A stretch of DNA of 64,000 nt from Verrucomicrobiaceae bacterium (GTDB lineage: Bacteria > Verrucomicrobiota > Verrucomicrobiia > Verrucomicrobiales > Verrucomicrobiaceae), in contig JAIXSY010000038.1 of the NCBI GenBank assembly GCA_027484445.1, positions 3,915 through 67,914 of the forward strand, given 5' to 3'. Positions within the stretch are counted from its first letter, which is position 1, and the number at the start of each line of letters is the position of its first letter. Both the position numbers and the translations under genes were made by a program. Shown here one piece after another: positions 58,737 to 61,154 of this stretch. The notes below the pieces were generated by a model. It saw only the letters and a list, made by a program, of their open reading frames with translations. It was not told the origin of the DNA and searched no databases.

Positions 58737-59240
58737 TCAGTTGGCCCGGCAAGTCTTGGCGAGGTCGCGGTATTGCGCTTCGGTCGCGCGGCGATCTTGA
58801 TCGCGGATGTCTTCAAGTACGGTGCGATCGTCATCCTTCAGATCGGCGGCGGGTTTACCCAAGGCACCCGAGACGAAGTCGTCGAAGCTGAAGCCTTCAA
58901 ACATGCAGCCACAGGATTTGGCATCCAGCTGGCGCGACATCGCGGTGCGGATATAGGCCTGCCGCGCCACCGCATGGAACTTCCAGTCGGTGATCCCGCT
59001 CGGCAGATCGATGACGTCCTCGCACGTCCCGCCGCCCTGCCCCGCAAAGATCCCGACCCCACGCCGCTGCATCTCGGTCAAAAGCTGCAGAGCGTCCTCG
59101 GCATCCTGCGCCCCCACCGCTTCCCGAGTTTTCGCCAGGAGATCGAGATCGCTGACGGTGGTCAGGTCCTCAGCCCGGGTGAGGCTCGGGAAGAAGAGAA
59201 GGGCGACGGCCATCGCCGTCAGTAGGCGAGCGCTGCGCAT
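58737..59240 (-). CDS. Exported Cys-containing hypothetical protein between virB5 and virB6
   Basis: Signal peptide, four Cys, start overlaps the virB5 stop. Confidence 0.7.
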   Translation of the reverse strand: MRSARLLTAMAVALLFFPSLTRAEDLTTVSDLDLLAKTREAVGAQDAEDALQLLTEMQRRGVGIFAGQGGGTCEDVIDLPSGITDWKFHAVARQAYIRTAMSRQLDAKSCGCMFEGFSFDDFVSGALGKPAADLKDDDRTVLEDIRDQDRRATEAQYRDLAKTCRAN

Positions 59241-60034
59241 CAGTTTGCCCCCGAATAGTCGAAGAAGCTCTTCTCCTTGGCCTGCTCGGCGGCCCAGTTC
59301 ACACCGGCTTGCCCGGCAGCAAGGCCCGAAGCGGCATTGAGGCGCCACATCTGACCCAGCATGTAGTTGGTCTCGGCCGCCATGCGGGTGTTGAGATCGA
59401 CGCTGTCCTTCAGCGTCTCCTGATTGCCGATCTCCGCGACCAGGCCGTCGATCCGCTCAAGGCTTTGTGCAGCCTCGTCATAGGACATCTGGGCCATACC
59501 CATGGCCGTGGCACTCGCCGCAGCCGTGGCGGCGATACCCTTGTCCTGCGGGTTGGTCGAAGAGGAAAGACCTGCCAGGGTTTCCGAGGTGAGCCCGGCG
59601 TTGGCCAGCGTGTCCTGCATGTACTCGGCCGCCATCTTGTCACCCATGGTGACCTGGCCATCGAGGAGATCGTCCATCAGGCTGTCGAAGTCGCCGATTT
59701 CCAGCGCCTTGGTGAAGCCGGAGAGATCGGTGATCTTCGCCGCACGCGACCGCAGGTCCTGCGCCGAATTATAGAGGCTGGCGATCTCGTTCAGGCCCGA
59801 GATCGAGCCCAGGATGCCTTCCAGATTGGTGATCTGGTCGAGGCCATTCTGGACCTGCTTTTTCATCTCCTCTATCTGGGCGATCTGATTTTCGGCATCC
59901 TGCAGGGCTGCCTGCAACTGCTCGATGTTCTTGGCGAGGTTGGTGCCGTCGATCACCGGCACGCCTTGGGCGAAGGCCGCTCCCGTGAGGCCAAACGCCA
60001 TCAGGGCGACAGCCGCCATCCGATCAATTCTCAT
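59240..60034 (-). CDS. virB5: T4SS minor pilin
   Basis: Signal peptide then QGVPVID; helical; RIDGLVAEI...[11 protein letters not shown]. Confidence 0.9.
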
Positions 60035-61154
60035 GGGAATACCTCCAGAAATCCGAATATTGCAGGGCTTGCGAGGCGTCCGAGAGCCCCTTGGCGGCTT
60101 CGACCTTCACGGCCCCGGCGCGCAGGCGCAGCGTCAGAGCCAGGAGCCGGGCGCGCTCGGCCAGCATGTAGGTGTTTTGGTCTACAGCCTGTTTTGACGT
60201 CTCGGGCTTGGCCTCGGAGAGGAGCCCCGCGATCCGTGCCATCGCGGCCTCGATTTGGGCGCCACCTTCTGTCGAATAGCCCACGAAGGCCGAGGACATG
60301 TTGCCCCATTCGGCACTGGCACCTTCGACGCCGTAAAGCGTGCCGGTCACATCCGCGCCGGTGATCACAGCGAGATAGGCATCGTAGTACCCGGCGATCC
60401 GCCGCACGTAGTTCTGAGTTTCCTCGAAGGGCGGGATGCCGCCATATATTTGCACATTGCCCGGCCCGGCATTGTAGGCCGCAAGCGCCAGATCGACCCG
60501 CCCGAAGCTCTGCAGTTGGGTCGCCAGATACCGCGCGCCACCGTCGAGGTTCTGTTCGGGATCGCTCGGATCAACGCCGAGATCGGCGGCAGTGCCCGGC
60601 ATCAACTGGGTGAAGCCAAGCGCCCCAACCGGGCTGACGGCCGCATTGTTGAAGCCGCTTTCTTGCTTCACCAGCGACTGGAACAAGATGCGCCAGGTCG
60701 TGGGATTGAGCCCCGCTGCTGCGATCCCAGGATGCCCATCATAGCGATGGGCGGTGGCAATGATCATCGCCTCGACCGTGGCGCCATCGCCGAAGAGACG
60801 CTGCGCTTCGGGGGAGGTTTCCGTGACAGGATAGGTCTCTTCCACCGAGGGGAAATTCACCCCGCCCGTCTCGAACCCACTGACGTCTGTCCGGCCCGTC
60901 GTGTCGGCCAAGAACGCCTGATAGGCCGCGAGCTGCTCCGCCTCGATCTCGTTCAGGGATTTGTGGGTTTCGAGCTTCTCTCCCTGCTTCACGGCATCTT
61001 CGGCCTGTTCCGTGAGCCGCGAGATCAGATTCGACAGGCGTGAACCGTCGATGATCGGCACACCCTGCGCAAAGGCGGGCGCCGCGAGACCTGCGAAGTC
61101 CGCAAGGGCGGCGGCAATCAGAACGCCGGGAAGGAGGGAAGAGACGCGCGGCAT
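60024..61154 (-). CDS. Lytic transglycosylase (SLT) domain within a VirB5-like scaffold
   Basis: SLT motifs [34 protein letters not shown]. Both termini align with the neighbouring VirB5. Confidence 0.9.

Follow-up and report, generated by a model that had tools for sequence, protein, structure and literature searches.

A VirB5-like protein with an internal lytic transglycosylase domain in a virB-type type IV secretion operon

The window analysed here is the whole stretch of 64,000 nucleotides (nt) from contig JAIXSY010000038.1 (assembly GCA_027484445.1, positions 3,915 to 67,914). Its minus strand carries a virB-type type IV secretion operon between 53.9 and 64 kb. Along this strand the genes were found in the order virB3, virB4, a lipoprotein gene, P0001, virB5, a gene for a secreted protein, virB6, virB8, virB9, virB10, and virB11 (Table 1). 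P0001, the subject of this report, encodes a chimera of three parts: a signal peptide with a VirB5-type N-terminal helix, a lytic transglycosylase (SLT) domain containing Glu165, and two VirB5-type C-terminal helices. The start ATG of the chimera gene lies 8 nt past the stop of the lipoprotein gene, which is translationally coupled both to virB4 (ATGA overlap) and to the chimera gene. At the other end, the ATG of the canonical virB5 gene (P0002) overlaps the 3' end of the chimera gene by 11 nt, with a GGAGG ribosome-binding site inside the chimera gene. The product of P0002 matched the PDB sequences of TrwJ (E 2.6e-6) and TraC (E 0.0023).

Table 1. Features of the operon around the chimera gene; coordinates are those of the window except for virB1 (aa, amino acids; ORF, open reading frame; pLDDT, predicted local distance difference test; dN/dS, ratio of non-synonymous to synonymous substitution rates)
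Feature	Coordinates	Strand	Evidence or remark
Stand-alone VirB1 SLT, 236 aa, signal peptide	L001 1367-2077 = contig C39 68366-69076	-	first operon gene
virB3	truncated by window end	-	
virB4, 800 aa	61396..63798	-	PF03135 E 1.2e-29; same operon, upstream of chimera
Predicted lipoprotein, 78 aa, lipobox ...AAVSAC	61163..61399	-	ORF list
Chimera gene P0001, VirB5-SLT-VirB5, 376 aa	60024..61154	-	ORF list, translation, >100 full-length homologues
Sec signal peptide, chimera residues 1-29, predicted cleavage between AFA and QG	61068..61154	-	sequence; AlphaFold2 pLDDT <50 at residues 1-33
VirB5-type N-terminal segment, residues 30-93, QGVPIIDG mature end, one long helix	60876..61067	-	hhalign, PF07996, TrwJ
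Linker and SLT lytic transglycosylase domain, residues 94-270	60345..60875	-	PF01464, Foldseek, VirB1 identity, pLDDT
Codon of predicted catalytic Glu165, K-Q-E-S motif	60660..60662	-	invariant in 28 homologues
VirB5-type C-terminal segment, residues 286-376, two long helices	60027..60299	-	hhalign, PF07996, tail co-variation, dN/dS
Canonical VirB5 gene P0002, 264 aa	59240..60034	-	PF07996 E 3.5e-18; TIGR02791 E 1.1e-12
Secreted protein, 167 aa, function unassigned	58737..59240	-	ORF list; ATGA overlap with virB5
virB6, 339 aa	57714..58733	-	PF04610 E 2.4e-29

An earlier note on this DNA had claimed that the mature N-termini of the chimera and the adjacent VirB5 match without gaps at 18 of 58 positions, and a hand count on the translations agrees. 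The C-termini, which it had also aligned, align through to the final residue, interrupted by just one gap of one residue. In a BLASTP comparison of the two proteins, the N-terminal 83 residues of the chimera gave E 2e-9 (33% identity) and the C-terminus gave E 0.006. The cleavage context AFA/QG is common to both. In the alignment of 28 homologues the hydrophobic leaders vary and end just ahead of an invariant QGVP.

For the profile comparison, family alignments of 28 chimera homologues (A1) and 19 VirB5 homologues (A2) were used, and the profile pieces were cut with the signal peptide removed, to exclude leader similarity and gain power. The whole profiles aligned end to end in hhalign, with a probability of 99.3% and E 1e-20. 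A profile–profile search of the termini, named as a check in the earlier note, matched chimera residues 30–95 to residues 1–64 of mature VirB5 (E 5e-14) and residues 296–376 to residues 165–241 (E 2e-11). The middle piece of the chimera showed no match to the VirB5 profile (E 0.095). The ends of the two proteins match independently and in the same order. It is very improbable that these matches stem from signal peptides and low-complexity helices that happen to look alike, or from an error of assembly or annotation. The weak BLASTP value of the C-terminus and the position of P0001 under the Pfam VirB5 threshold would agree with such a source, but the profile matches without signal peptide are strong and collinear, the Pfam VirB5 model matches both ends in orthologues, and hundreds of records contain the ORF in intact, conserved form.

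In the orthologues, the Pfam VirB5 model PF07996 (197 positions) places the N-terminus on profile positions 1–48, and in P0040 and P0092 it also places the C-terminus on positions 122–194. Its gathering cut-off of 24.7 bits was passed by P0037, P0040, P0065, P0074, and P0092 (25.5–32 bits), and many homologues bear the precomputed pair PF07996 and PF01464. The N-terminal segment of the chimera also matched TrwJ (7o3v) with E 0.0025. The C-terminal segment carries the motif K..VD.NT....AE and an F-W-x-Y-S tail. By alignment, VirB5 residues ~87–177 (~90 residues) are swapped for chimera residues ~94–285 (~190 residues), and the replaced VirB5 stretch consists of the short helices between the long ones.

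The chimera resembles the VirB5 family (TraC of pKM101, PDB 1R8I; TrwJ of R388, PDB 7O3V; PF07996, TIGR02791) in its Sec signal peptide, its conserved mature N-terminus Q-G-[VI]-P-x-x-D, its long first helix, its two long C-terminal helices with K..[VI]D.NT....AE, and its gene slot between virB4 and virB6. It differs from the family by a middle of ~190 residues with an SLT enzyme, and by its coexistence with a canonical VirB5. AlphaFold2 with alignment A1 gave a model of the chimera with a mean pLDDT of 84 and a predicted template modelling score of 0.69. Long helices were predicted at residues 37–85, 276–314, and 320–366 (pLDDT 74–94), and these three equal the helix count of the VirB5 three-helix bundle. 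The SLT domain had a pLDDT of 91–98. The AlphaFold2 model of the adjacent VirB5 (19-sequence alignment) was poor, and because of its pLDDT of 48 it was not used for fold comparison.

The SLT domain that the earlier note had described as complete and placed in mid-protein was found at residues 146–247 (nt 60414–60719; PF01464, E 7.8e-21). Q164, E165, S166, the GxxQxM residues G180, Q183, and M185, and the stretch A226-Y-N-A-G-P231 are invariant in the 28 homologues. Glu165 is the residue which we take to be catalytic, from what is established for family-1 lytic transglycosylases. In the PDB sequence search the chimera matched Slt70 with E 9e-10, and the Foldseek matches of the model were Slt70, Slt, MltF, and MltE. 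Judged by motif conservation, the SLT of the chimera is probably catalytically intact. The collinear profile matches, the presence of PF07996 in orthologues, and the complete SLT confirm the observation far beyond chance. From its sequence, the chimera is well supported as a VirB5 paralogue whose middle has been replaced by a family-1 SLT lytic transglycosylase. The proposal of a virB5 duplicate with a muralytic domain has therefore held, given the collinear end homology, the intact SLT, and the sister clades in the tree described below.

A genome-wide search for SLT domains detected a further SLT 0.5 kb past the window end. This is the stand-alone VirB1 of Table 1, which is followed by virB2 (L001 1050–1364) and virB3 (L001 688–963), and the contig ends ~270 nt upstream of it. 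As this VirB1 precedes virB2, the chimera is not the virB1 of the operon; since the operon has its own VirB1, the chimera is a second, additional SLT. The expectation that annotation would simply call the chimera virB1 was not borne out: public records say 'lytic transglycosylase domain-containing protein', and VirB1 exists separately.

The chimera shares with the VirB1-type enzymes (VirB1 of Agrobacterium and Brucella, TrwN of R388, TraL of pKM101) a family-1 SLT with a catalytic Glu, the location within a virB operon, and the presumed job of opening peptidoglycan locally for the type IV secretion system (T4SS). The literature views VirB1 as free and soluble in the periplasm, where it makes the opening in the wall that assembly requires (PMC12857230; PMC12624023). 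Unlike these free enzymes (PMC12857230), which are encoded by the first gene of the operon, the chimera holds a second SLT in a VirB5 scaffold. Residues 84–261 of the chimera are 47% identical to the operon's own VirB1 over 178 residues (E 8e-49), with the pre-core region included. The SLT tree separates the chimera clade from the VirB1 clade. The insert may derive from the operon's own VirB1 or from another SLT, as the chimera SLTs, the VirB1s, and a chromosomal Rhodobacterales SLT clade form an unresolved three-way split.

A third SLT protein of the genome (295 aa; L002 249–1136, minus strand, contig C56) is 61% identical to the SLT core of the chimera. Its gene lies outside any virB cluster within the 6 kb examined, and it adjoins a gene whose product has a Cys/His-rich N-terminus and may be primase-like.

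More than 100 full-length homologues of the chimera were present in the protein collection, with 47–92% identity. An exhaustive profile search of 1.84 billion representatives gave ~15 full-length clusters at the 50% identity level, and the rest matched the SLT only. The full-length matches in GTDB species genomes were all Rhodobacterales, down to 36% identity, and included Sulfitobacter, Marivita, Roseovarius, Mameliella, Cognatishimia, Shimia, Aquicoccus, Paracoccus, and Gemmobacter. In a tblastn search with the operon proteins of the window, the arrangement VirB1-VirB2-VirB4-(lipoprotein)-chimera-VirB5 was seen in every locus long enough, and it recurs in ~25 Rhodobacterales loci, down to 36% identity. 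A blastn search of PLSDB matched 378 plasmid records, 12 of which cover at least 80% of the chimera/VirB5 gene pair. Phaeobacter, Sulfitobacter, Dinoroseobacter, and Paracoccus are among the organisms matched. In the listed PLSDB records the pair is labelled 'lytic transglycosylase domain-containing protein' and 'type IV secretion system protein'. The chimera is a conserved core gene of virB-type conjugation systems on Rhodobacterales plasmids and no local oddity.

A protein of 389 aa with an SLT domain occupies the operon position of the chimera in Gellertiella hungarica (L027 5902–7071) and Rhizobium paknamense (L032). Its mature N-terminus, QVPVTDG, matches its own VirB5 with E 6e-4. In the SLT tree, its domain forms the sister group of the chimera SLTs of Rhodobacterales (95/87). 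Its C-terminus is acidic and contains Cys, and a comparison with VirB5 showed no recognisable likeness. This Rhizobiaceae protein is a probable diverged relative of the chimera.

Several side observations concern the gene order. Downstream of virB5 two orders occur, namely B5-(small ORF)-B6-B8-B9-B10 (window, L004–L007) and B5-B8-B9-B10-...-B6 (L009–L016, L022–L031). In the second order virB6 lies ~4 kb further downstream, and the chimera is present in both. In one Rhizobiaceae metagenome-assembled genome (MAG; L041), VirB4 is followed directly by VirB5 with no chimera, which is a possible ancestral arrangement. In a Thioclava MAG (L018 3966–5729), one frame holds the N-helix of the chimera, the SLT, and a complete VirB5 with its signal peptide. 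This frame lacks the C-terminal helices of the chimera, and it is either a natural deletion/fusion variant or an assembly error.

The relationship between the chimera ends and VirB5 was followed in a tree of concatenated ends (62 + 92 residues) from 13 chimera/VirB5 pairs. The chimera ends and the VirB5s were reciprocally monophyletic with 100/99 support, and their internal topologies were mirrored. These mirrored clades imply that duplication and insertion took place once, in the distant past, and that both copies have since diverged together with the operon. The dN/dS values, taken from pairs with unsaturated dS, were 0.02–0.17 for the N helix, 0.02–0.25 for the C helices, and 0.03–0.07 for the SLT. 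The chimera ends are under purifying selection.

The extreme C-terminal tails of the chimera and its partner VirB5 vary from lineage to lineage but resemble each other within a locus. In the window the chimera ends in DFWRYSHEN and VirB5 in SFFDYSGAN; in L009 the tails are FMDFTIREIE and FMDFTLPDLRAD, in L023 FIKVKGGSE and FIKVLGGE, and in L006 FMQMGVPE and FRSMAVDP, respectively. FWRYS/FFDYS, FMDFT/FMDFT, and FIKVKGG/FIKVLGG are examples of this likeness. Over the last ~15 residues, identity between chimera and VirB5 was 0.41 within the own locus and 0.22 with other loci (permutation p 0.0014, seven lineages). This own-locus excess is not expected from descent alone, because the duplication predates these lineages. 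It suggests that the two tails have a binding partner in common or have undergone gene conversion. Recent gene conversion is an unlikely cause, in view of the tail nucleotide identity of 0.42–0.67 and the synonymous differences at identical residues. As a sequence pattern, the co-variation fits a docking partner common to the chimera and VirB5.

These data also bear on another explanation, in which the chimera would be a second VirB1-type enzyme that duplicates the work of VirB1 or stands by as its backup. Its helical ends, a remnant of its origin, would serve no more than its oligomerisation, stability or auto-inhibition and leave the VirB5 binding sites unused. The SLT is the best-conserved part of the protein (dN/dS 0.03–0.07 against 0.02–0.25 for the ends), and the ends evolve faster than VirB5, as seen from their longer branches. 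VirB1 enzymes are often non-essential and interchangeable (PMC10018362; PMC9259494). The Thioclava form without C-terminal helices and the Rhizobiaceae protein, with a C-terminus not recognisably VirB5-like at the same position, would agree with such a role as well. However, the ends are kept by purifying selection in a family that has diverged to 36% identity, and the VirB5-specific mature N-terminus QGVPxxD is nearly invariant. The C-terminal tail follows the partner VirB5 lineage by lineage, and the gene is always directly before virB5 and translationally coupled to it. We regard a mere second VirB1 as rather unlikely, although it deserves more weight than any other alternative discussed here.

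The structural frame for the reading that we prefer comes from R388. There, the stalk is a VirB6 pentamer that bears a pentamer of VirB5, and the N-terminal part of VirB5 projects like that of pore-forming proteins (PMC9259494). The growing VirB2 pilus drives VirB5 outward through the arches and the outer-membrane complex (PMC9259494). Judged by its predicted signal peptide, the chimera is Sec-exported, and its gene is translationally coupled between virB4/lipoprotein and virB5. Beyond the VirB5–SLT architecture itself, we infer every step of what follows. The retained VirB5 elements would do the docking: on the N-terminal side the QGVPxxD mature end with helix 1, and on the C-terminal side the last two helices with the tail. 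VirB6 is the proposed docking partner, a role that we infer from PMC9259494, and the enzyme would be held where VirB5 itself sits, atop the periplasmic stalk on the pentamer of VirB6. A mixed VirB5 pentamer with the chimera as its minority subunit is one possible form of this arrangement, and a temporary cap is another. From the VirB6 stalk, the SLT would cleave the donor peptidoglycan right in the path of the stalk and the nascent pilus, while VirB1 would clear room for the outer-membrane core complex. The same logic applies to FlgJ, which caps the flagellar rod and carries a muramidase. We lean, with slightly better than even confidence, towards this reading, in which a VirB5-like bundle holds the enzyme at VirB5's own site on the VirB6 stalk and donor peptidoglycan is cut ahead of stalk and pilus.

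Several results weigh against this docking of the enzyme in place of VirB5. P0001 itself scored 13.8 bits against PF07996, below the cut-off of 24.7. A Foldseek search of the PDB with the full AlphaFold2 model gave only SLT enzymes among the matches listed, and a hidden Markov model of the C-terminal 106 residues (21 family members) detected no PDB chain even at E 10. The tail co-variation comes from just seven lineages, and an old, local gene conversion is possible. A VirB5 with a ~20 kDa globular domain may also be too wide for the arches and the outer-membrane channel, and this excess width argues against a permanent role at the tip.

In another reading, the chimera would leave the donor as part of the tip complex of VirB5, and once the tip had passed the recipient outer membrane, its SLT would act on the peptidoglycan of the recipient. 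VirB5 sits at the pilus tip (PMC9259494), and the chimera has kept the tip-forming VirB5 elements, namely the C-terminal helices and the N-terminal segment, which points outward in the pentamer of R388. Since VirB1 already serves donor-side lysis, a second SLT invites another target. Against this, the enlarged subunit must pass arches and an outer-membrane channel sized for a normal VirB5 pentamer or pilus, a tip enzyme would need a route into the recipient periplasm, and the chimera has no features beyond those of a periplasmic enzyme. Such a pilus-tip drill is improbable in our view. We are equally doubtful that the chimera is a true VirB5 tip-complex subunit on the growing pilus end, which would act as a drill bit and cut the donor peptidoglycan from within and then, after contact, that of the recipient. 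If it were a true tip subunit, it would be the first enzyme assigned to a T4SS pilus tip.

The proposed docking of a wall-cutting enzyme at the stalk can be compared with known systems. In Agrobacterium, a fragment named VirB1* is set free from the C-terminus of VirB1; it binds both VirB5 and VirB2 and favours the formation of pili. VirB1* binds VirB5 as a separate fragment, whereas in the chimera the VirB1–VirB5 link would be covalent. In the flagella of beta- and gamma-proteobacteria, FlgJ is a rod cap fused to a muramidase, and Rhodobacter sphaeroides uses the pair SltF-FlgJ. The likeness to FlgJ and SltF-FlgJ is one of working principle only: as a filament grows through the periplasm, its cap or tip protein brings along a peptidoglycan hydrolase, either fused or recruited, and the wall is cut where the structure passes. 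The FlgJ scaffold has no sequence relationship to the chimera and belongs to a different machine, and a cap role of the chimera is hypothetical. CagL of Helicobacter pylori and, according to the proposal in bioRxiv 10.64898/2026.07.31.741991, TraH of the F plasmid are similar in that domains have been added to or exchanged in a VirB5 helical core that stays on VirB6 or at the pilus tip. The extra parts of these proteins serve adhesion or have no assigned function; unlike the chimera, they contain no enzyme and no SLT.

The gene has been listed simply as a lytic (murein) transglycosylase in Paracoccus yeei (PMC6209633) and Dinoroseobacter shibae (PMC9426580). Full-text literature searches, with subscription journals outside their coverage, gave no description of the chimera or its VirB5-like ends, and two recent T4SS reviews (PMC12857230, PMC12624023) do not mention a VirB5–SLT fusion. 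The building blocks are known and the gene is widely sequenced, and the architecture appears to be undescribed. Because the gene is labelled merely as a transglycosylase in many plasmid records, its recognition would change the annotation of a whole T4SS lineage. How the stalk and pilus pass the peptidoglycan with lysis confined to that place is explained only loosely by a free, often dispensable VirB1. An enzyme covalently fused to the stalk-tip scaffold would give a concrete, testable answer for many environmental conjugative plasmids, among them those of the Roseobacter group, Paracoccus, and related rhizobial plasmids. The VirB5-like ends would also be a natural tool for asking which VirB5 surfaces suffice for VirB6 docking, and the two SLTs are genetically separable.

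Two small genes beside the chimera and virB5 were also inspected. The 78-aa lipoprotein encoded between virB4 and the chimera gave no match in a Pfam search. It is kept at the same position in close relatives (64% identity in L003, partial in L005), and it is a possible analogue of VirB7, a protein said to be missing from this T4SS lineage. The 167-aa secreted protein encoded between virB5 and virB6 had no significant match in a Pfam search. It is weakly conserved at this position, with 26–69% identity across related loci. The slot between virB5 and virB6 is the one in which pKM101 has its entry-exclusion gene.

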